A stretch of DNA of 36,968 bases from IMG/VR virus record IMGVR_UViG_3300007734_000644, positions 1 to 36,968 of that record, one strand, 5' to 3'. The translations under genes were made by a program, and so were the position numbers. Positions 1-36,968 of this stretch are shown here, piece after piece; the first letter of the stretch is position 1; every line of letters begins with the position of its first letter. Source of the DNA: a virus (taxonomy: Duplodnaviria; Caudoviricetes). The notes below the pieces were generated by a model. It saw only the letters and a program-made list of their open reading frames with translations, did no database searches and was not told the origin of the DNA.

Positions 1-2
1 CG

Positions 3-1424
3 CTTGTGCCGGTTCCTGACTTTATCCTGTACCAAGATCAAGCCAATGAACTGGATATCCTCTCGGATCGAATCGACGGGCTTGTGAAGGCTTTACGGGT
101 CAGAGGTGTCTATGACGCAAGCCAGCCAAGCCTTCAACGGCTGCTGACTGAAGGAGAAAACAACGCGCTGATCCCCGTCGATAAGTGGATGGCCTTCTCG
201 GAGAAGGGCGGACTGAAAGGCAGCATCGACCTATTGCCGCTAGATGTGCTGTCGAACGCTTTGCTGCAATGCTATCGGGCGCGGGAAGATATCAAGGCGC
301 AAATCTACGAAATCACCGGCATCAGCGACATCATTCGGGGCGCGTCCCGTGCGTCTGAAACCGCGACCGCACAGCAGATCAAGGGCCAGTACGCCGGACT
401 GCGGCTGCGCTCAATGCAAGAAGAAGTCGCCCTGTTTGCTAGTGGTTTGATCCGTCTGAAAGCGCAGATCATTTGCACGAAGTTTCAGCCTAAGACGATT
501 CTGGAGTACTCAGCCGCTGAGCAGATGAGCGAAGAAGACCAAGCCCTAGTCCCGCAAGCACTCATGCTGCTGCAAGAAAGCCCGCTGCGAAACTTCAGGA
601 TCGAGGTGGATTCGGACAGTCTTGTTCAACTTGACGAACAACAGAACAAGAAAGATCGCGTGGAATTCCTGACCGCGTTCGGCGGTTTCATGCGCGAAGC
701 GTTGCCTGTGGGTCAGCAATCGCCCGAATTGGTTCCGATGCTGGTCGAACTGATGAAATTCGGGGTTGGAGCATTCAAGCAAGCCGCGCCAATCGAAGGG
801 GCAATAGATCAAGCTCTGGAGAAGATGAAGCAAGCGCAAAAGCAAGCGGCGATGAACCCGAAACCCGCTCCGCAAGACCCAGAAATGATAAAGATTCAAG
901 CCGCGCAGCAACTCGAGCAGGCAAAGATGCAAGCCTCGGCGCAAGGCGAACAGATGCGGATGCAAGCAGACTCGCAAGCCGCTCAGATAAAGGCGCAGAT
1001 CGACACCCAAATGCATCAAGCGAAGATCCAAGCAGATATGCAACTTGCTCAGATGCAAGCGCAGATCGAAGAACAGAAGATGCAGCACGAAATGGCGATG
1101 AAAGCGCAGCAAGCCGCGCAAGAGGACGAATTCAATCGCTGGAAGGCAGAACTAGAGGCAGCAACCAAGGTCACGGTGGCGAGGATTGGCGCGAACCCAG
1201 GCGGCGACCCGCCCTTGGTGGACGCAATCACAGCCAGCACGACTTGGATGGCTCAAGAACTGGGAACGGGACTCTCGCAAGTAAGTCAAATGCAGAAAGA
1301 ACTTGCACAAACGCAAAGTGATTCAAATGACAGGATGGGAAATATTATGACGGCGCTTACGGCGAAAAAACGAATCATTCGCGGCCCGGACGGTAGAGCA
1401 ATCGGGGTCGAAGTCGTTCAATAA
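3..1424 (+). CDS. Portal protein, 5'-truncated allelic copy
   Basis: Near-identical to the C-terminal 472 aa of 33205..35502; frame is open from the window edge. Confidence 0.9.
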   Translation, partial: LVPVPDFILYQDQANELDILSDRIDGLVKALRVRGVYDASQPSLQRLLTEGENNALIPVDKWMAFSEKGGLKGSIDLLPLDVLSNALLQCYRAREDIKAQIYEITGISDIIRGASRASETATAQQIKGQYAGLRLRSMQEEVALFASGLIRLKAQIICTKFQPKTILEYSAAEQMSEEDQALVPQALMLLQESPLRNFRIEVDSDSLVQLDEQQNKKDRVEFLTAFGGFMREALPVGQQSPELVPMLVELMKFGVGAFKQAAPIEGAIDQALEKMKQAQKQAAMNPKPAPQDPEMIKIQAAQQLEQAKMQASAQGEQMRMQADSQAAQIKAQIDTQMHQAKIQADMQLAQMQAQIEEQKMQHEMAMKAQQAAQEDEFNRWKAELEAATKVTVARIGANPGGDPPLVDAITASTTWMAQELGTGLSQVSQMQKELAQTQSDSNDRMGNIMTALTAKKRIIRGPDGRAIGVEVVQ

Positions 1425-1768
1425 TGAATGGCGAATGGGATGTCGGCACTTGGGACAGCGCAACTTGGGACTACGTTACCCCGATTGTTGTGCTGGATAC
1501 CCACGATGGCGATTACCTCAAAAAGAAGTTCGCAAAAGAAATACAAGACAAAAAACGGCGAAAAGACGAGATTATTTATGCGTTTGAGCGAATCGTTGAA
1601 GGCAGACCAGACGTTGCGACAGAGATCGCAGCGCCGTATACAGAGAAACGCGCATCGACTTTGCCTGCGATTGATTACGACAAGATGCTCGACGACTTGG
1701 ACCGGGTTGAGCGGATCTGGAACCTACACATCGAACTGGACGACGAAGAAGTGATGATGCTGCTATGA
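1424..1768 (+). CDS. Hypothetical protein (N-terminal W-x4-W-x4-W motif)
   Basis: Coupled to the portal stop (TAATG); frame conserved in both repeat copies. Confidence 0.85.
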   Translation: MNGEWDVGTWDSATWDYVTPIVVLDTHDGDYLKKKFAKEIQDKKRRKDEIIYAFERIVEGRPDVATEIAAPYTEKRASTLPAIDYDKMLDDLDRVERIWNLHIELDDEEVMMLL

Positions 1769-2085
1769 GATACGTTTCGATTAACGGTGAGTGGGTCCCG
1801 ATAGATCAGCGAACCCCGGCTGAAGGCGTGATGATCCAGCCAGATATCCAGCCCTATCAGTCGATGGCTGACGGCTCAATGATTACGAGCCGCTCCCAGC
1901 ACCGGGAACACCTGAAAAAGCACAACTGCTTTGAAGTCGGCAACGAAAAGATGGAATCCAAGCCTGTAATCGTAAAAGACACCCGGCGCGAGGTTTTGCG
2001 CTCTCAGCTTGCCAATATGACCCATTCCCAAGCCAATAAAGTGCTTTCACGGCTCAGGGATGATATTCGTTTCACCCGCAAATGA
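1765..2085 (+). CDS. Hypothetical head-module protein
   Basis: ATGA overlap with upstream gene; conserved in second copy with an in-frame 6-nt indel. Confidence 0.85.
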   Translation: MRYVSINGEWVPIDQRTPAEGVMIQPDIQPYQSMADGSMITSRSQHREHLKKHNCFEVGNEKMESKPVIVKDTRREVLRSQLANMTHSQANKVLSRLRDDIRFTRK

Positions 2086-2103
2086 CCCCCACAGGGAGCA
2101 AAA

Positions 2104-3081
2104 ATGTCTGACCTTAACGAGATTGTCCCAGTCGAGAACGGCGATGCCCGCCGCGAAATGCTTGCCCAGCAATTTGACGAAATCGAAACCAGCCCCGCTG
2201 AACCAGCGCGGGACGATGCTGGCAAATACGCCAAAGCCGAAACGCCCGTTAAAACGACTCCAGAAGCAGAGGTGCAGGAAGATCCCGTCTGGAAGCGCCC
2301 CCCGGCAAGCTGGAAAAAGGACTACCACGAGGTTTGGCAAACCGCCGACGATAGGCTGAAAGAATACGCCCATCAGCGCGAAGAACAGATGAAGGCGGGA
2401 ATTGAGCCGTTGCGCTCTAAAGCTCAGTTCGCGGATCAGATGCAAGAGGTCATTGCCCCGTATATGCAGACAATCACGGGTCTGGGGATTGATGCTCCGA
2501 AGGCTGTAAAAGCCTTGATGGAAGCAGACCACATCCTGAGAAACTCGCAACCCGCTGAGAAACACCAATATTTTGCTAGACTTGCACAAAGTTACGGAGT
2601 AAATTTATCTGATGTCGGTGGTTTGCAACAACAGACTGCCGTAGATCCACAGTTTTATGCCTTGCAAAACGAGCTAAATTCGGTTCGCGGCGAGGTGATG
2701 GGCTGGAAACAGCAGCAAGAACAGCTACAAAACCAAGCCCTTCTTGGAGAAATAAACAATTTCTCGCAGAAGGCAGAGCATTTTGAAGAAGCACGGCCTG
2801 TGATGATCCAGCTCCTACAGAGCGGCGTTGCGACCGATTTGCAAGATGCTTACGACAAAGCGGTGCGCCTAGATCCGGGACTTTTTGAGACTGTTCACGC
2901 TGGCAAACAAGCCCAAGTTGAGCAGACAAAGAGGGCCGGAGCCGATAGGGTTGCGAAAGCAGCAAGGGCGGCAGCGGTGAGCGTCAGAGGCTCCACACCC
3001 GGAGCGGCTACTCAATCCAAAGCGCAAGATCGTCGTGCGTTGCTGGCAGAGCAGTTTGAAAACCTCAGCGAACGACTCTAA
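2104..3081 (+). CDS. Capsid scaffolding protein (putative)
   Basis: Acidic/helical protein directly upstream of the capsid gene; RDDAGKYA and PPASWKK motifs typical of such scaffolds; SD GGGAG. Confidence 0.75.
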   Translation: MSDLNEIVPVENGDARREMLAQQFDEIETSPAEPARDDAGKYAKAETPVKTTPEAEVQEDPVWKRPPASWKKDYHEVWQTADDRLKEYAHQREEQMKAGIEPLRSKAQFADQMQEVIAPYMQTITGLGIDAPKAVKALMEADHILRNSQPAEKHQYFARLAQSYGVNLSDVGGLQQQTAVDPQFYALQNELNSVRGEVMGWKQQQEQLQNQALLGEINNFSQKAEHFEEARPVMIQLLQSGVATDLQDAYDKAVRLDPGLFETVHAGKQAQVEQTKRAGADRVAKAARAAAVSVRGSTPGAATQSKAQDRRALLAEQFENLSERL

Positions 3082-3102
3082 CCACTTTCAAGGAGCTAAA
3101 AC

Positions 3103-4029
3103 ATGGCATTCGCCAACAGTTCCGTTAGTGACATCATTGCGACCAACATTCAAAGTCGCTCGGGTGAGCTTGCGGACAACGTAACAAACAACAACGCACT
3201 CTTGCGTAGGCTGAAAGAACGCGGAAACGTGAAAACGTTTTCCGGCGGTAACGTCATCCTCCAAGAGATCATGTACAACGACAGCACGACCAATAACACG
3301 AACTCTTACTCGGGTTACGAAGTGCTGAACGTGTCGCAAAACAGCCCGATCTCGGCTGCTCAGTTCGGCATCACCCAGTACGCTGCGGCAGTCTCGATCA
3401 GCGGCCTGGAGATGATCCAGAACAGCGGCAAGGAAGCGATCATCGACCTGCTCGACGGTCGCATGAACGTGGCTGAAGCTCAACTGGCTAACCGTATCGG
3501 TGGGGATATCTATCTGGACGGAACCGGCAACAGCGGCAAGAACATCACGGGCCTCGGCGCGGCTGTGCCGGATGCTCCGACCTCTGGGACGTATGGCGGC
3601 ATCAACCGCGCCACTTATACGTTCTGGCAGTCGGTTGCTTATTCGGGCGTGACGAACGGCGGCTCAGCAACTTCAGCCTCCAACATCCAGCAGTACATGG
3701 ACTCGTTGGCTGTGCAACTGATTCGCGGAACCGACAAACCCGATCTGATCGTGGCGGATAACATTTACTACCGTCTGTATCTGCAATCGCTTCAGTCGAT
3801 TCAGCGTATCTCTGACTCGGGCAACTCGTCTGCTGGTGCTGGTTTCGCTTCGCTGAAATACTACGGCGCTGGCATGGCCTCGGATGTGGTGCTCGACGGC
3901 GGTATCGGTTCTGCCGCGACTGCCTCGCATATGTGGTTCCTGAACACGAAGTACATGATGTTCCGGCCCCACGTTGACAGGAATTTCGTACCGATTGGCG
4001 GCGAACGGCAAGCCGTTAACCAAGACGCT
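3103..4029 (+). CDS. Major capsid protein, exon 1
   Basis: SD AAGGAG; position after scaffold; capsid-like sequence ending ...QAVNQDA at the predicted 5' splice site. Confidence 0.88.
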
Positions 4030-4268
4030 AAACCAACGTTTCATTAAAATGGTGTCTATAAACCTTCTCTGATTGACTTGGAAGCCCGGAAGCGGGCGAC
4101 AGGGCGGAAGCGAAAGCACCGTGAACGACTAAGTGAGAGGGCCGCGAAAGCGGAAGCGATAGTCTGAACATCGGTATAACTTTATTGAAGCCGGTGAGGG
4201 AGATCCGAAGTGGTTTCCCCGCCATCGAAAGATGGTCAGTAAGCCGAAAGGCTGAAAGTAACAGAATG
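4030..4268 (+). ncRNA. Group I self-splicing intron, ORF-less, 239 nt
   Basis: Exon ends in U and intron ends in G. P1: exon AGACGCU pairs with GGUGUCU (4051-4057) with a U-G pair at the junction. P7: GACUA (4127-4131)/UAGUC (4160-4164) in R/S-like contexts. P3: CCUUCUC/GAGAGGG. P8: CCGC-GAAA-GCGG. Removal restores the frame. Confidence 0.93.
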
Positions 4269-4343
4269 ATTGTGAAATTGATCGGTTGGGCGGGCAATCT
4301 TACGTCCTCCGGCCCGCAATTTTGCGGCGTTTTGATCGCTTAA
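4269..4343 (+). CDS. Major capsid protein, exon 2 (IVKLIGWAGNLTSSGPQFCGVLIA*)
   Basis: In frame with exon 1 after splicing (333-aa product); stop overlaps the SD of the next gene. Confidence 0.9.
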   Translation: MVKLIGWAGNLTSSGPQFCGVLIA

Positions 4344-4355
4344 AGGAGAAGCAAA

Positions 4356-4907
4356 ATGGCTTTTACTATCATTGAAAACCAAGCCGGTCTGCTTCAGATC
4401 GCCGTCATCGATACGGGTGTGACCTCTCCGGGCGGCGTTTCGTCTGGAACGGCTACCGTTATCCCGACTCCGCCCAACGTCCTCGGAAAGATCGTGCGTG
4501 CTGACGATCCGACTTACGGCGAAGGCGAATTCATCCTGCTCGTCGGGGTGGCTTCAACGGTTGTCGGTTCGCTGGTGTCGTACAACGCAACGACCTATCA
4601 GACGGTTCTGGTTCCGAACACGGGAAACCAAGCCTGTCCGGTTGCTGTTGCAATGTCTGCTAACCTTGCTGGCACGTTCGGCTGGTATCAGATCGAAGGA
4701 AACGCGGTAGTCAAGAAAACGGCAGTTGCGGTTACCCCGCAGGTGACGCTGTTCCTGTCTGCCACCGCTGGTCGCGTTAAGGTTCTTGCCTCTGCGGGTC
4801 TCCAGGTTCTCGGAGCGCGTTCGGCAAACCTTGCAACGATTGCTGCGACCGTTTCGACGGTCACGGTGACGCTGAACCGTCCTCACCTGCAAGGCCAGAT
4901 TACTTAA
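4356..4907 (+). CDS. Capsid decoration/cement protein (putative)
   Basis: Small A/V/T/G-rich beta-type protein directly after the capsid gene; SD AAGGAG. Confidence 0.6.
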   Translation: MAFTIIENQAGLLQIAVIDTGVTSPGGVSSGTATVIPTPPNVLGKIVRADDPTYGEGEFILLVGVASTVVGSLVSYNATTYQTVLVPNTGNQACPVAVAMSANLAGTFGWYQIEGNAVVKKTAVAVTPQVTLFLSATAGRVKVLASAGLQVLGARSANLATIAATVSTVTVTLNRPHLQGQIT

Positions 4908-5702
4908 ATGGTCGAAGCAGTTTTAGACGTTGTAGGAAATACGGCCCCCAGCGTAATGCTGGGGAACGTAAAGCTGTCTTGTAAAAGGCAGCTTTCTTGG
5001 TTCGATTTTGATGAAAAGTCAAACGAGGAAAGCATTTGCATCGTCGGAGGTGGGCCGAGCCTCAACAAATCATTCCCACAACTGGCGGCGCGGTTCCAGA
5101 ACGGCGCTCAAGTCTGGAGCGTCAACGGCTCATACGATTGGCTGACTAAGCGGGGAATCGTTCCTGACGGTCATGTGATGCTGGATGCGCGACCTGAAAA
5201 CGTGCGGTTCGTGAAGAATCCGAAGCCGCAGACGCAGTTCTATATCGCCAGCCAATGTGATCCCTGCATATTCGACGCTCTGGAGGGCTTTAACGTCGAT
5301 CTGGTACACGTTCAGACTGAAGGAGTCTACGAGTACCTCGAGGACGAGAAAGAGCGTCCTGTGCATCTTATGGGCGGTTTAACGACTGTCGGGATGCTGG
5401 CGATGGTTCTTGCAAAGCTGAAAGGTTATAAACGCATCTACCTGTTCGGCATGGACTCTAGCTACTCGGAAGACCAGCACCATGTTTACAAGCAAGAGTC
5501 GAACGATGGCGAAACAATCATCACGGCTTCGATCCACGAACAGAAGTACAAGGCTGCTCCGTGGATGTGCCAGCAAGTGAAGGACTTCCAGAACATTGCG
5601 CGAGAGTTCGCGCAGGAAGATGTGGTAATCGAGGTCTGCGGTTCAGGTTTGCTCTTCGCAATGGCGAAAGCCATGTCTATTCCCATAACACAAAGGATCT
5701 AA
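4908..5702 (+). CDS. MAF/DUF115 (MptE-like) family protein, putative glycosyltransferase-like
   Basis: Motifs ICIVGGGPSL, PDGHVMLD and GYKRIYLFGMDS match this family. Confidence 0.7.
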   Translation: MVEAVLDVVGNTAPSVMLGNVKLSCKRQLSWFDFDEKSNEESICIVGGGPSLNKSFPQLAARFQNGAQVWSVNGSYDWLTKRGIVPDGHVMLDARPENVRFVKNPKPQTQFYIASQCDPCIFDALEGFNVDLVHVQTEGVYEYLEDEKERPVHLMGGLTTVGMLAMVLAKLKGYKRIYLFGMDSSYSEDQHHVYKQESNDGETIITASIHEQKYKAAPWMCQQVKDFQNIAREFAQEDVVIEVCGSGLLFAMAKAMSIPITQRI

Positions 5703-9500: not shown

Positions 9501-11448
9501 CTACGCTGGAGCGGCAACGGCCCAAGGTGCGGCGAACGTTGAAACTGCCCGTCTTCAGGGGCGGATGAACAATCCCAACATATCCGGCCCTCTTGGAAGC
9601 CAGACTGTAACTTTTGGGACGCCGAGTTTTGACCAGGCGAACTACGACAAAGCAATGTCGGCGTATCAAGCTAGCCCGCGTGGGGCGGTTCCGATGCAGA
9701 GCCAATTTTATACTCCAACCGGATACGACGATCAAAGCGTGTTCGATACCGCTGGCTACCAGAATGCAATGAACAAATGGGCGGCAGGAACGAACGCGCC
9801 CACAAGGGAGCAATACACAACTACCACGGGCGGCGACCAGCCAACGATTACGCAGACGTTGACCCCGCAAGCACAGCAGACGCTAGACGCTCAACAGCGC
9901 GTTCAGACCGCTCTGGCAGGGCTAGGCGAGCAAGGGCTAGGGACTGCCAGCCGAGTGCTCGGAACTGGGTTTAATCCAAACCTCGCGGGGCTTCAGACGA
10001 ACCTTGGCAACGCTGGGCAGATTTCTCAAGCGCCGGATCTGAGCAGATACGGTCAAGCAAGCGGAAACGTAAACGCGGGGCAGATTTCGCAAGCGCCTGA
10101 GCTTTCGCGGTACGGTATGGCTGGAGCGAACGTCAACGCGCAAGGCGTAAACGCAGGACCGCAAGCGGGACAGTACGGAATGTCGAGCGGCGGCCCGAGT
10201 GCTGGGCAATATGGATTTGCAGGTGGCCCGAGTGCTGGGCAATATGGATTTGCAAGCGGCGGTCTAAACACAAGCAACGTTGCCGCGATGCCGGTCAGCG
10301 CAGGAATGACGGGCCAAAACGCAATTATGAGCCGTCTGGCTCCGCAGCTAGAGAAGTCTGATGCAGCAATGCGACAGCGGCTTGCGAACCAAGGTCTGGT
10401 CGCTGGCGGCGAAGCGTATGAAAACGCCATGCTTTCGCAAAATCAGCAAAAGAACGACTTGCTAAGCCAGGCCGCTTTACAAGGGATCGGTCTGGATACT
10501 GCCGCAAACGCGCAAGGGTTTAACCAAGCATTGGCAGCGGGGCAATTTGGCAACCAAGCGGTTGGGCAAAACTTTGGGCAAGGTGTGACTGCCCAGCAAT
10601 TGCAAAACGCTGGCATTGCCCAGAATTTCGGGCAAGGACAAGCCGCAAACGCTGCACAAAATGCCGCCATTGGGCAGAATTTCAATCAAGGCTTGTCGGC
10701 TCAGCAAGCGCAAAACGCTGCGGCCCAACAGCTTTACAACCAAAATATGGGTGTGCAAGGCTTGCAGAATCAAGCAGTCGGTCAGAACCAGCAAGCCGCA
10801 TTGTCTCAGCAGCAAGCCCAGCTTGCCGCCCAGCAACAAGGGTTCGGGCAAAATGTTACGCAGCAGCAACTGGGCAACCAAGCTATTACCCAGAATCAGC
10901 AGGCTGCATTGCAGCAGCAGCAAGCCGCACTTGCCGCGCAGAATCAGCAATTCAACCAGTTGCTGCAAGGTGGTCAGTTTGGCAATACTGCTCAGCAACA
11001 AAGTTTGCAACAGCAGCTTGCGTTGCGTAATCAGCCGCTCAATGAGATCACCGGTCTCATGGGTGGATCGCAGATCCAGATGCCACAGTTTCAAGGCTAC
11101 CAAGGCAGCAACATCGCTGCGGCTCCGGTCATGGCAGGCGCACAGGCTGCTGGACAAGCGGCAATGGATCAGTACGGGATTCAATCCTCTAACGTAAACG
11201 CTCAAAATGCAGGGCTGTACAACCTCGCTGGTGCGGGGTTGATGGCGGCTAGGTTTAGCGACCGTCGATTGAAATCAAACATTGAACACGTTGGTACACA
11301 TCCGCTCGGAATCGGCATCTACGAATACGACATTTTCGGAAATCGTGAACGTGGCGTAATGGCTGACGAAGTTCTGAACGTGATGCCGAATGCCGTGTCG
11401 GTTCACCCGTCTGGATTTATGCAGGTTGACTACGGGATGCTGCAATGA
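9463..11448 (+). CDS. Gln/Gly-rich internal virion (ejection) protein with C-terminal peptidase S74-like domain
   Basis: MGK..P.PPAAPDY N-terminus; long Q/A/G/N repeats; C-terminal SDRRLKSNI motif. Confidence 0.7.
   Translation: MGKDSPSPPAAPDYAGAATAQGAANVETARLQGRMNNPNISGPLGSQTVTFGTPSFDQANYDKAMSAYQASPRGAVPMQSQFYTPTGYDDQSVFDTAGYQNAMNKWAAGTNAPTREQYTTTTGGDQPTITQTLTPQAQQTLDAQQRVQTALAGLGEQGLGTASRVLGTGFNPNLAGLQTNLGNAGQISQAPDLSRYGQASGNVNAGQISQAPELSRYGMAGANVNAQGVNAGPQAGQYGMSSGGPSAGQYGFAGGPSAGQYGFASGGLNTSNVAAMPVSAGMTGQNAIMSRLAPQLEKSDAAMRQRLANQGLVAGGEAYENAMLSQNQQKNDLLSQAALQGIGLDTAANAQGFNQALAAGQFGNQAVGQNFGQGVTAQQLQNAGIAQNFGQGQAANAAQNAAIGQNFNQGLSAQQAQNAAAQQLYNQNMGVQGLQNQAVGQNQQAALSQQQAQLAAQQQGFGQNVTQQQLGNQAITQNQQAALQQQQAALAAQNQQFNQLLQGGQFGNTAQQQSLQQQLALRNQPLNEITGLMGGSQIQMPQFQGYQGSNIAAAPVMAGAQAAGQAAMDQYGIQSSNVNAQNAGLYNLAGAGLMAARFSDRRLKSNIEHVGTHPLGIGIYEYDIFGNRERGVMADEVLNVMPNAVSVHPSGFMQVDYGMLQ
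10192..10254 (+). repeat. Perfect 30-nt tandem duplication (33-nt period)
   Basis: GGCCCGAGTGCTGGGCAATATGGATTTGCA at 10192-10221 and 10225-10254. Confidence 0.95.
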
Positions 11449-25429: not shown

Positions 25430-25861
25430 ATGAGCAACTGTAGGTGCTTAACAATCAATCGCGTTCTTACCCAGCAAGAGAATAGTCGAGGGTCTTGGAT
25501 GTACATTGTTCGATGCCTCGATTGTGGTTTTGATGTTGGTTCATGGATTCCTTATAGGAATGTGCGGTACGAAGATTGCATCGACTATGACTACGTTTTC
25601 TTCGATCAAATACGTTCTAACCATTATCAAAAAATAAAAGCAGAGCGAAAAGACGAATACGCCAATTATTTGCAATCGGCTGAGTGGGCTAAAAAAAGGA
25701 TGGGGGCAATGGACAGAGACAACTGGAAATGCGTTTCTTGCGGGGACGATGCGGTTCATGTTCATCACATTACCTATGAGCGAATATTCAACGAGGCATT
25801 AGAGGATTTGGTTTCCCTCTGCGAACGATGTCATCAGCGGGAGCATTCATATGGCAGATGA
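25430..25861 (+). CDS. HNH endonuclease
   Basis: RDNWKCVSCG, VHHITY and LVSLCERCH motifs. Confidence 0.88.
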   Translation: MSNCRCLTINRVLTQQENSRGSWMYIVRCLDCGFDVGSWIPYRNVRYEDCIDYDYVFFDQIRSNHYQKIKAERKDEYANYLQSAEWAKKRMGAMDRDNWKCVSCGDDAVHVHHITYERIFNEALEDLVSLCERCHQREHSYGR

Positions 25862-33204: not shown

Positions 33205-35502
33205 ATGGAACCAACCAGCACAGGCGTACAGAAATGGCTCAATGTCGTATCGACATACGATAACGAGTTCAAGAAGTGGGAAGCGCGAACGACTAAGATC
33301 GTGAAGCGTTACCGCGACGATAACCGTAGCCAGCACACGAACGAAACCGCCAAGTTCAACATCCTCTGGTCGAACGTCCAGACGTTGATTCCTGCTGTGT
33401 ACGCAAAGCTGCCGAAAGCGGTAGCCCAGCGTCGATTTGGGGACAATGACCAAGTGGGCCGCGTGGCTGGTCAGCTTCTTGAACGCGCTCTGGACTTTGA
33501 GATTGAGCATTATCCCGACTTTCGCGCAACGATGAAACACGCGGTCGAGGACAGGTTCCTCGGTGGGCGCGGCGTGGCATGGGTGCGTTATGAGCCGCAC
33601 GTTCGACAGCAGGACGTCCCTGAAGACGGTCTGCAAGTCACAGAGGACGTTGACGAGAGTGAAGGCCAGGACTACACCGCAGGAGAAGAGCCGCAAGAGG
33701 AAATAGAGTACGAATGCGCCCCGACTGATTACGTTCATTGGAAGGACTTCGGTCATTCAACAGCCCGCACATGGGAGGAGGTCACCTGTGTCTGGCGCTG
33801 GGTGTACATGAGCCGGGAAGCCCTTATTGAGCGGTTCGGAGAAAAGGCGGGAAAGAAGATCGCGCTCGACTCTGGCCCCGAAACGCTGACTAATTACGGG
33901 CAATCGACCAAAGAACGCACCCGAGCGAAAATATGTGAGCTTTGGTGCAAGGATAGCGGCAAGGTCTACTGGTTCAGCAAGAACAACCCCGAAATGATCG
34001 ACGAGCGGGACGATCCTCTAGAACTGGAGGGATTCTTTCCCTGCTGCGAACCGTTGTACGCCACAACGACCTCAGACACGCTTGTGCCGGTTCCTGATTT
34101 CATCCTGTATCAAGACCAAGCGAACGAGCTAGATATCCTCTCAGATCGCATTGACGGGCTTGTGAAGGCTCTACGGGTTCGGGGTGTCTATGACGCAAGC
34201 CAGCCCAGCCTCCAGCGACTGCTGACTGAGGGTGAAAACAACGCGCTGATTCCGGTCGATAAGTGGATGGCGTTTTCAGAGAAGGGCGGATTGAAAGGCA
34301 GCATCGACCTCTTGCCGTTGGATGTTCTGTCAAACGCGTTGCTCCAATGCTATCAAGCGCGGGAAAACATTAAGGCGCAAATCTACGAAATTACCGGCAT
34401 CAGCGATATTATCCGGGGCGCGTCCCATGCGTCTGAGACAGCGACCGCACAGCAAATCAAGGGCCAATATGCCGGATTGCGGCTGCGTTCGATGCAAGAA
34501 GAAGTCGCCCTGTTCGCTAGTGGTTTGATCCGTTTGAAAGCGCAGATTATTTGCACAAAGTTTCAGCCTAAGACGATCCTTGAATACGCCGCTGCTGAGC
34601 AGATGAGCGAAGAAGACCAAGCCCTCGTCCCGCAAGCACTCATGCTGCTGCAAGAAAGCCCGTTGCGAAACTTCAGGATCGAGGTGGATTCGGACAGCCT
34701 GGTGCAACTTGACGAGCAACAGAACAAGAAGGATCGCGTTGAATTCCTGACCGCGTTCGGCGGTTTCATGCGCGAAGCGTTGCCCGTGGGCCAGCAATCG
34801 CCCGAGTTGGTTCCGATGTTGGTCGAACTGATGAAGTTCGGGGTCGGCGCATTTAAGCAAGCCGCGCCAATCGAAGGCGCAATAGATCAAGCTCTGGAGA
34901 AGATGAAGCAAGCGCAAAAGCAAGCGGCGATGAACCCGAAACCCGCGCCGCAAGACCCAGAGATGATAAAGATCCAAGCCGCGCAGCAGCTTGAGCAAGC
35001 AAAAATGCAAGCCTCGGCCCAAGGCGAGCAGATGCGAATGCAAGCAGACTCGCAAGCCGCTCAAATAAAGGCCCAGATCGACACCCAAATGCACCAAGCG
35101 AAGATACAAGCAGATATGCAACTCGCGCAGATGCAAGCGCAGATCGAAGAACAGAAGATGCAGCACGAAATGGAGATGAAAGCGCAGCAAGCCGCGCAAG
35201 AGGACGAGTTCAATCGCTGGAAGGCTGAACTTGAGGCAGCAACCAAGGTCACGGTGGCGAGGATCGGCGCGAACCCTGGCGGCGACCCCCCTCTGGTGGA
35301 CGCAATCACAGCCAGCGCCGCTCGTATGGCTCAAGAACTAGGCACGGGACTCTCGCAAGTGAGCGCGATGCAGGAAGCGCTCGCACAGACGCAGAACGAC
35401 TCAAATGACAGGATGGGAAACATTATGACGGCTCTAACTGCAAAGAAACGAATCATTCGCGGCCCGGACGGTAGAGCAATCGGGGTCGAAGTCGTCCAAT
35501 AA
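33205..35502 (+). CDS. Portal protein with long Gln-rich coiled-coil C-terminus
   Basis: 765 aa downstream of terL; ITGISDIIRG...ETATAQQIK motif of P22-like portals. Confidence 0.9.
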   Translation: MEPTSTGVQKWLNVVSTYDNEFKKWEARTTKIVKRYRDDNRSQHTNETAKFNILWSNVQTLIPAVYAKLPKAVAQRRFGDNDQVGRVAGQLLERALDFEIEHYPDFRATMKHAVEDRFLGGRGVAWVRYEPHVRQQDVPEDGLQVTEDVDESEGQDYTAGEEPQEEIEYECAPTDYVHWKDFGHSTARTWEEVTCVWRWVYMSREALIERFGEKAGKKIALDSGPETLTNYGQSTKERTRAKICELWCKDSGKVYWFSKNNPEMIDERDDPLELEGFFPCCEPLYATTTSDTLVPVPDFILYQDQANELDILSDRIDGLVKALRVRGVYDASQPSLQRLLTEGENNALIPVDKWMAFSEKGGLKGSIDLLPLDVLSNALLQCYQARENIKAQIYEITGISDIIRGASHASETATAQQIKGQYAGLRLRSMQEEVALFASGLIRLKAQIICTKFQPKTILEYAAAEQMSEEDQALVPQALMLLQESPLRNFRIEVDSDSLVQLDEQQNKKDRVEFLTAFGGFMREALPVGQQSPELVPMLVELMKFGVGAFKQAAPIEGAIDQALEKMKQAQKQAAMNPKPAPQDPEMIKIQAAQQLEQAKMQASAQGEQMRMQADSQAAQIKAQIDTQMHQAKIQADMQLAQMQAQIEEQKMQHEMEMKAQQAAQEDEFNRWKAELEAATKVTVARIGANPGGDPPLVDAITASAARMAQELGTGLSQVSAMQEALAQTQNDSNDRMGNIMTALTAKKRIIRGPDGRAIGVEVVQ

Positions 35503-35846
35503 TGAATGGCGAATGGGATGTCGGCACATGGGACAGCGCAACGTGGGACTACGTCACCCCGATTGTTGTGCTGGATACGCATGATGGCGATTACCTTCAA
35601 AAGAAGTTTGCAAAAGAAATACAAGACAAAAAGCGGCGAAAAGACGAGATTATTTATGCGTTTGAGCGAATTGTTGAGGGCAGACCAGACGTTGCGACAG
35701 AGATTGCAGCGCCGTATACAGAGAAACGCGCATCGACTTTGCTTGCGATTGATTACGACAAGATGCTCGACGACTTGGACCGGGTCGAGCGGATCTGGAA
35801 CCTACACATCGAACTGGACGACGAAGAAGTGATGATGCTCTTATGA
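35502..35846 (+). CDS. Allele of 1424..1768
   Basis: Two amino-acid differences. Confidence 0.85.
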   Translation: MNGEWDVGTWDSATWDYVTPIVVLDTHDGDYLQKKFAKEIQDKKRRKDEIIYAFERIVEGRPDVATEIAAPYTEKRASTLLAIDYDKMLDDLDRVERIWNLHIELDDEEVMMLL

Positions 35847-36169
35847 GATACGTTTCAATTAACGGTGAGTGGGTCCCGATAGATCAAGTCGAGCGAACCC
35901 CGGCTGAAGGCGTGATGATCCAGCCAGATATCCAGCCCTATCAGTCGATGGCTGACGGCTCAATGATTACGAGCCGCTCCCAGCACCGGGAGCACCTGAA
36001 AAGGCACAACTGTTTTGAAGTCGGCAACGAAAGCATGGAATCCAAGCCCGTGATCGTAAAAGACACCCGGCGCGAGGTTTTGCAGTCTCAGCTTGCCAAT
36101 ATGACCCATTCCCAAGCCAACAAGGTGTTGTCCAGGCTCAGGGATAATATTCGTTTCACCCGCAAATGA
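35843..36169 (+). CDS. Allele of 1765..2085
   Basis: 2-aa insertion (VE) and a few substitutions. Confidence 0.85.
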   Translation: MRYVSINGEWVPIDQVERTPAEGVMIQPDIQPYQSMADGSMITSRSQHREHLKRHNCFEVGNESMESKPVIVKDTRREVLQSQLANMTHSQANKVLSRLRDNIRFTRK

Positions 36170-36187
36170 CCCCCACAGGGAGCAAAA

Positions 36188-36968
36188 ATGTCTGACCTCA
36201 ATGAGATTGTCCCAGTCGAGAACGGTGATGCCCGCCGCGAGATGCTTGCCCAGCAATTTGACGAAATCGAAGCAAATCCCGAAACGGCAGTACCTGCGCG
36301 GGACGATGCTGGCAAGTACGCCAAAGCCGAAACGCCCGTTAAAACGACTCCAGAAGCAGAGGTGCAGGAAGATCCCGTCTGGAAGCGACCCCCGGCAAGC
36401 TGGAAAAAGGATTATCACGAGGTTTGGCAAACCGCCGATGATAGGCTGAAAGAGTACGCCTACCAGCGCGAAGAACAGATGAAGGCGGGGATTGAGCCGC
36501 TGCGGTCCAAGGCTCAGTTCGCGGATCAGATGCAAGAGGTAATCGCCCCGTATATGCCGACAATTACGGGCTTGGGGATTGATGCTCCGAAGGCTGTAAA
36601 AGCCTTGATGGAAGCAGACCACATCCTGAGAAACTCGCAACCTGCTGAAAAGCACCAATATTTTGCTAGACTTGCACAAAGTTACGGAGTAAATTTATCT
36701 GATGTCGGTGGTTTGCAACAACAGACTGCCGTAGATCCAAATTTTTACGCCTTGCAAAACGAGCTAAATTCGGTTCGCGGCGAGGTGATGGGCTGGAAAC
36801 AGCAGCAAGAACAGCTACAAAACCAAGCCCTTCTTGGAGAAATAAACAATTTCTCGCAGAAGGCAGAGCATTTTGAAGAAGCACGGCCTGTGATGATCCA
36901 GCTCCTACAGAGCGGCGTTGCGACCGATTTGCAAGATGCTTACGACAAAGCGGTGCGCCTAGATCCGG
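36188..36968 (+). CDS. Scaffolding protein allele, 3'-truncated by the window end
   Basis: Matches 2104..2878 with a 6-nt insertion. Confidence 0.85.
   Translation, partial: MSDLNEIVPVENGDARREMLAQQFDEIEANPETAVPARDDAGKYAKAETPVKTTPEAEVQEDPVWKRPPASWKKDYHEVWQTADDRLKEYAYQREEQMKAGIEPLRSKAQFADQMQEVIAPYMPTITGLGIDAPKAVKALMEADHILRNSQPAEKHQYFARLAQSYGVNLSDVGGLQQQTAVDPNFYALQNELNSVRGEVMGWKQQQEQLQNQALLGEINNFSQKAEHFEEARPVMIQLLQSGVATDLQDAYDKAVRLDP

Follow-up and report, generated by a model that had tools for sequence, protein, structure and literature searches.

Phage group I introns of subgroup IA2 (T4 td, nrdB and nrdD; Twort orf142) follow the core order P1-P3-P4-P5-P6-P7-P3-P8-P7-P9, carry an early in-frame stop, and have P9.0 lying just a few bases upstream of the terminal G; the subgroup is defined by P7.1/P7.2 between P7 and P3. 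The published explanation of early in-frame stops is that they bar ribosomes from the intron (PMC3073962). Phage capsid genes are already known to carry introns: the LittleE capsid intron was shown to splice, with Tuc2009 cited alongside (Pope et al. 2013, PMC3706429), and in crAss-like phages (Delta and Zeta) group I introns occur in the major capsid gene (Yutin et al. 2021, PMC7886860). An earlier note on this DNA set the capsid intron against classic phage introns, mostly in DNA-metabolism genes of larger phages; given these precedents, a capsid location is not unprecedented, and the intron alone is ordinary.

The DNA analyzed here (the window, 36,968 bases) is an entire virus record, encoding portal, capsid, terminase, and primase genes. 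Its capsid gene contains an ORF-less group I intron (4030–4268, + strand, 239 nt), which shares the core order, early stop, and P9.0 position of the IA2 introns and differs from them by having no P2 and no P7.1/P7.2. In td, the stop occupies intron bases 1–3 and no tail is added (PMC8565351), whereas the window intron adds KPTFH. Like the LittleE capsid intron and the 265-nt tail-gene introns of BAKA and Optimus, for which splicing was demonstrated by RT-PCR, it resides in a virion gene, follows an exon-final U, and ends in G (PMC3706429). The BAKA intron is likewise short and ORF-less, while that of LittleE measures 819 nt and carries an endonuclease (PMC3706429). The portion of that paper drawn on here makes no mention of a read-through tail for the mycobacteriophage introns, and a blastn search of the window intron against 50,697 phage records gave no mycobacteriophage match. 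In the crAss-like Delta and Zeta phages the capsid gene is similarly split, with several introns per gene, but those introns were found via endonuclease domains in large gut phages, whereas the present intron has no ORF and sits in a genome of roughly 34 kb (PMC7886860).

Two types of C-terminal degradation signal are relevant to the added peptide. Lon prefers x-L/I-L/I/V-H ends, with His being decisive, and Lon-trapped substrates end in VTLH and FTVH (Cragan et al. 2025, PMC11986505). A terminal Ala-Ala drives ClpXP recognition, and when short C-terminal tags were screened in E. coli, none acted strongly without ClpXP (PMC10862746). The intron tails described below have the same terminal hydrophobic-His and Ala-Ala endings as these Lon His degrons and ssrA-ClpXP tags. 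Unlike the degrons of PMC11986505, however, the window ending is encoded in cis by the intron, is present only when the RNA is unspliced, and has a Phe-His that departs from the Lon consensus. The engineered td switch SIBR-Cas also links the splicing state to a degradation tag, but as a proposed design in which the tag follows splicing, whereas the window arrangement tags the unspliced product (PMC8565351). A literature search, with most subscription papers outside its range, returned no description of natural intron-encoded degrons. Similarly, no published description of the compact intron family was found, supplements aside; the supplementary intron tables of PMC11878797 could include members. 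What is new here is a His tail conserved at the peptide level, together with the family's two-class degron pattern.

The interrupted capsid gene

The ORF at 3103–4047 (+ strand) matches the major head protein family phrog_9953 (E = 1e-93) and ends in NQDA-KPTFH-stop, and the next long gene begins at 4356. The early stop and downstream gap reported in the earlier note are thus present. Based on the phrog_9953 match and the homologues, exon 1 spans 3103–4029 (+; 309 codons), its last base U marking the 5' splice site, and exon 2 spans 4269–4343 (+; 24 codons plus the stop), matching the C-terminus of intact homologues. Excision of 4030–4268 restores the capsid frame as proposed, giving the 333-aa length (309 + 24) found in 118 of the 120 best homologues; the remaining two, of 313 and 314 aa, end in KPTLH and KHTLH. 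The alignment with intronless capsids, which the note had called for, runs through this site without a break. Across these best 120, the 24 residues of exon 2 show a mean of 22.9 identities, and 52 of the 120 share the identical tail region. Removal of the insert is accordingly required for an intact capsid protein.

The AlphaFold model of an intact homologue, P0001 (93% identical to the window's product), had a pLDDT of 86.6. Residues 309–322 form a long strand after the strand 285–303, and a second strand covers 329–332; the pLDDT of both exon-2 strands is ~94–96. In this model, exon 2 thus contributes to the core of the fold. The top Foldseek matches of the model were HK97-fold phage capsids, HK97 among them, and, judged on this homologue, the major capsid protein is HK97-fold. 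The nearest cultured capsids, from Stenotrophomonas, Bradyrhizobium, and Myxococcus phages, are 48–53% identical.

The site is uninterrupted in 76 of 80 related viral loci, whereas four carry 231–239 nt of inserted sequence there; it is missing from two relatives whose amino-acid identity is 99%. A sigma-70 promoter search of 1900–5000 and a tRNA/tmRNA search both gave none. The ends of the window (1–2878 and 34079–36968) overlap over 2.9 kb at only 92.7% identity, so that the 3' part of the portal gene and the genes following it are repeated. The record probably represents a circularly permuted genome of roughly 34 kb in which the assembly combined two strains. Additionally, a 33-bp tandem duplication (10189–10254) lies within a virion structural gene, and a gene with an MptE-like domain (4908–5702) is located in the head module.

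Fold, covariation, and transcripts of the intron

The insert is preceded by U4029 and ends at G4268, and the terminal G is retained in 42/42 distinct same-site introns. The internal guide described earlier is present: within 4023–4057 (+), guide bases 4051–4057 pair with exon bases 4023–4029, including a U4029-G4051 wobble at the splice site. The suggested P10 has a proximal and a distal part. In the proximal part, 4048–4050 (AAU) pair with 4269–4271 (AUU), and among the same-site introns this pairing shows a compensatory change once (L451, L454) and a wobble once (L434 group). The distal pairing (4038–4044 with 4272–4278, −5.1 kcal/mol) is absent from some relatives. P3, P7, and P8 were found as claimed. 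P3 (4063–4141; 4063–4069 with 4135–4141) encloses P4 (4077–4080/4100–4103), P5 (4084–4088/4093–4097), P6 (4105–4107/4119–4121), and P6a (4110–4111/4116–4117). In the guanosine-binding helix P7 (4125–4165), 4125 and 4127–4131 pair with 4160–4165 around a bulged C4126, and P8 comprises 4142–4145/4150–4153. The 3' domain (4166–4268) contains P9.0 (G4166-C4262) and hairpins at 4169–4196, 4198–4219, 4221–4236, and 4242–4253; all of these elements are on the + strand. Thus, the P3-P7 pseudoknot with its bulged base, the G-C guanosine site, P4-P6, P8, and P9.0 are all present. The folding z-score of the intron was −3.85, and 0/200 shuffles folded equally well. Subgroup IA2 was considered and rejected: P2 is absent at the capsid codon-309 site, and the joiner from P7 to P3 is 3 nt in 104/104 cores, leaving no room for P7.1/P7.2. 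An AAACC motif at the intron start (4030–4037) repeats a stretch before and at the beginning of P3 (4060–4069). No second core motif was found elsewhere in the 36,968-base record.

A covariance-model match, which the earlier note had looked to, was not obtained: the Rfam group I model RF00028 gave zero matches in the window, in the 341-nt region 3980–4320, and in 10 related loci. The archaeal introns of PMC6125680 all escaped this model, which also lacks entire group I subgroups (PMC11878797). Because RF00028 is known to miss sets of group I introns, we tested the structure directly. Motif scans gave 72 loci, then 122 listed of ~440 matches, then 126 listed of an estimated ~1,100 IMG/VR stretches, and a scan of GTDB genomes gave 64 loci. 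Pairing was examined in 104 non-redundant cores, for which 189/192 matches could be parsed. In P3, pair 4 is formed in 88/104 cores and the other six positions in 104/104, as are both P6 pairs that were tested, the final pair of P7, and the first three of P8. The last P7 pair is A-U in 86 cores, G-C in 17, and U-A in one, while most of P7 (five pairs) and P4 are uninformative, their bases having been fixed by the search pattern. The P9.0 pair is G-C in 263, A-U in 11, G-U in three, and A-C in one of 278 cases. In a plain alignment of 58 cores, 97.4% of cells are paired, compared with 39–47% in slid controls; 16 of 28 pairs show double-sided changes, and the covariation score was reached by 0/500 shuffles. 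The double-sided changes affect 6/7 P3 pairs and 2/3 P6 pairs, and the third P6 pair swaps in a separate comparison. Boundaries placed by protein score only, covering four sites of this capsid family, permit U...G in 37 of 38 unique cases; in the remaining case, L230, the boundary seems to have been placed a few bases off. The guide sequence differs from site to site among the family introns. Covariation, seen in P3, P6, P7, P8, and P9.0 among more than 100 relatives, outweighs the missing Rfam match; RF00028 is not diagnostic and its blind spots are documented (PMC6125680, PMC11878797).

The spliced joint was also sought in metatranscriptomes, as the note had proposed. The analysis covered seven of 24 listed RNA runs, all as assembled contigs from relatives of the window phage. 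In run X2, a 195-nt contig (depth 2.6) agrees at every base with the L001 intron. A second X2 contig (depth 17.3) leaves out precisely the 239 nt and carries T where the exons meet, with 0 differences in the 33 bases upstream and six in the 356 downstream. In run X7, from a different study, loose ends match both an L008-type intron and exon 1 joined straight to an L008-type exon 2. In the close intronless alleles, codon 309 ends in A rather than T. A more distant one, L013, 85% identical, has T there and agrees with the joined form over the six bases flanking the junction on either side. Joints with A ending codon 309, as in the intronless alleles, occur in X1, X3, X4, X6, and one X7 record; derived from such alleles, they are uninformative on splicing. 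In X2 and X7, RNA contigs from close relatives thus include both intron sequence and precisely ligated exons, which is suggestive of splicing in those relatives. The reading frame, the U...G boundaries, and the conserved core agree with the earlier identification of an ORF-less group I intron in the major capsid gene, and by this sequence evidence 4030–4268 is almost certainly a splicing group I intron.

Host genes and spread of the family

A search with the junction pattern, which fixed the first five intron bases, gave 106 matches, comprising 82 in this capsid family (79 complete, three cut off) and 24 in unrelated genes. The 79 complete same-site introns, from IMG/VR contigs, measure 231–248 nt and represent 42 distinct sequences. 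An endonuclease-bearing form at this site was sought among these copies and none was found; at their size they are too small for an endonuclease ORF. Some relatives at other sites adjoin endonuclease ORFs. A free-standing HNH endonuclease gene in the window (25430–25861) overlaps the start of the primase gene, far from the intron. Long coding-like insertions occur in P8 or P6 in L107 and L146, and also in L083 and L095.

The ~440-match scan, through the 122 matches listed, gave 101 family clusters: 63 in capsid genes, 14 in tape measure genes, two in portal genes, three in reductase genes, and 19 without assignment. Virion genes thus account for 79 of 82 assigned clusters in a sample biased towards introns like the window's. 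The intron is patchily present among near-identical phages and reaches capsids ~62–74% identical to P0001, and this distribution suggests past mobility of the family. Within the same capsid family, related introns lie at codons ~49, 53, 61, 66, 71, 83, and 283, with up to three per gene (L140, L094, L127, L128, L154, L158, L166, L318). A family intron is also found in the capsid gene of a Microviridae ssDNA phage (L269:1-661; Pfam Phage_F), where the tail ends in VIAA. In the cultured Roseobacter phage CRP-118 (L401, OR420741.1, 35056–35455), an unannotated related core lies between two annotated ribonucleotide reductase fragments, and Desulfovibrio phage 7757 also matches a related core.

Read-through tails and their predicted role

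At the capsid site, the read-through tail K-P-T-F-H-stop (4030–4047, +) is in frame in the P1 loop and is predicted to be a Lon-type C-terminal degron. The earlier note treated KPTFH-stop as a mere early stop. It proves to be a conserved peptide tail whose changes are mostly synonymous: K-P-T-[L/I/F]-H-stop begins 79/79 complete same-site introns, in eight distinct 18-nt versions that differ at four third positions and at one first position (L/I/F only), the first five bases being set by the search pattern. One variant uses a TGA stop, and in L434 and L451 insertions fall between the stop and the guide, leaving the tail untouched. The terminal His is present in the window and in all complete same-site copies. 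The window's T-F-H lies outside the Lon L/I-L/I/V-H consensus, with Phe in the penultimate and Thr in the antepenultimate place; most same-site copies have T-L-H or T-I-H, whose penultimate residue fits, and one Lon-trapped substrate ends in VTLH. Base pairing to the P10 guide may in part constrain the hydrophobic codon.

For the family, the host frame was taken as the longest upstream open frame. Among 163 clusters, 130 had a clear frame, and removal of seven endonuclease ORFs left 123. Degron-like tails occur in 72/123 clusters, compared with 4/243 other-frame ends and 38/582 natural C-termini, the clusters being mutually related, so that P values overstate independence. Fifty-three of the 123 end in [AVIL]-Ala (38 of them in Ala-Ala) and 19 in [LIVF]-His. 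The two classes match the two best-known types of C-terminal degron, and these endings are probably degrons. The tail stops in the P1 loop, in P2, or in lengthened P5/P6 loops; in many relatives the frame crosses P3-P6 and terminates in a lengthened P5 or P6 loop directly after Ala-Ala. The His-stop occurs in nine insertion contexts, in P1 or P2 loops, and only as CAY followed by TAA, TGA, or TAG. Virion genes have degron-like tails in 84/119 cases (capsid 68/97, tape measure 16/21, portal 0/1), compared with 1/8 in ribonucleotide reductase; the figure for unassigned genes is 21/76. Some tails mimic a longer stretch of the tmRNA tag, such as ANDSSFALVA or AEDYALAA (L153, L195, L211, L371, L113). 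At what is apparently one P22-like coat-gene site (L402, L180, L276), some introns have a His ending and another has LLAA, suggesting a switch between degron types.

The most serious alternative is an ordinary self-splicing intron in which the stop only bars ribosomes from the ribozyme, and in which shared ancestry or RNA structure, such as an extension of P1 or contacts of the loop, accounts for the constant tail. In-frame stops near the 5' splice site are the norm for group I introns (PMC3073962; td in PMC8565351), yet such a keep-out role does not predict translation through P3-P6 to Ala-Ala stops in the P5/P6 loops. Tail codon 4 is able to pair with bases immediately before the guide and the same-site introns share ancestry; even so, the variation of the tail follows codon degeneracy, and the His-stop recurs in different loops. 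Since the tail classes had been set after the tails were first inspected, the count was repeated on new loci, with 61 matches like the earlier ones removed. Although 51/123 of the original tails are not degron-like, the enrichment persists in this held-out set (34/73 compared with 3/144 other-frame ends; His endings alone, 2/73 compared with 0/144). On balance, we regard this alternative as unlikely, though deserving of serious attention.

Alternatively, the tail could be selected as a peptide for another job, such as ribosome pausing or termination that aids P1 folding, or exclusion of the truncated subunit from capsids. Translation of the upstream exon aids the splicing of bacterial group I introns (PMC3073962), and the invariant K-P-T is unexplained by the Lon consensus. 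Stop positions that differ by more than 100 nt between relatives, together with the match of the two ending classes to the best-known degron types, make this explanation improbable.

If there were no splicing, the 314-residue protein would serve as the capsid alone, or be complemented by a 25-residue peptide from the AUG at 4266–4268, or be extended by ribosome bypass. This AUG is in frame with exon 2, but many same-site introns lack it and end in AAAG, and no matching landing codon precedes exon 2. Given that selection maintains pairing in the ribozyme core and that a core strand of the capsid fold comes from exon 2, separate initiation and bypass were rejected, and an intron that does not splice is very doubtful. 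An assembly artefact, to which the two joined strains at the record ends might point, is ruled out for practical purposes by the 79 same-site copies with their diverse sequences.

We thus favor, as the probable reading, a self-splicing capsid intron whose first five codons add a Lon-type tail to the read-through product; the degron function of the tail is likewise a prediction that we hold to be probable. By standard group I chemistry, P7-bound guanosine would attack after U4029, and the exons would be ligated at G4268 under the guidance of P1/P10, yielding the 333-residue HK97-fold capsid protein. With translation coupled to transcription, a fraction of ribosomes would reach 4045–4047 before splicing and stop there, releasing a 314-residue product without the core beta-strand, which may be misfolded or poisonous to capsid assembly. 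The hydrophobic-His tail would target this product of unspliced RNA to Lon protease for removal, and in related introns ssrA-like Ala-Ala tails would recruit ClpXP to the same end.

For the family, we lean, with somewhat less assurance, towards the view that compact phage introns have repeatedly evolved their own quality control, in which degrons encoded in 5' loops, for Lon (His) and for ClpXP (Ala-Ala), would destroy truncated virion subunits and enable the colonization of highly expressed, assembly-sensitive genes. An estimated ~1,100 IMG/VR stretches carry the core and are missed by Rfam, with capsid genes annotated as fragments (one example), and the tails would constitute a natural degron library from uncultured hosts. 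If this view is correct, a selfish intron lowers the cost to its host by tagging its by-product for proteolysis, beyond splicing cleanly and stopping ribosomes, and two degron types are used convergently to do so. It would also provide a testable reason for the residence of these introns in capsid and tape measure genes, where truncated subunits would be harmful, and for the scarcity of tags in ribonucleotide reductase.
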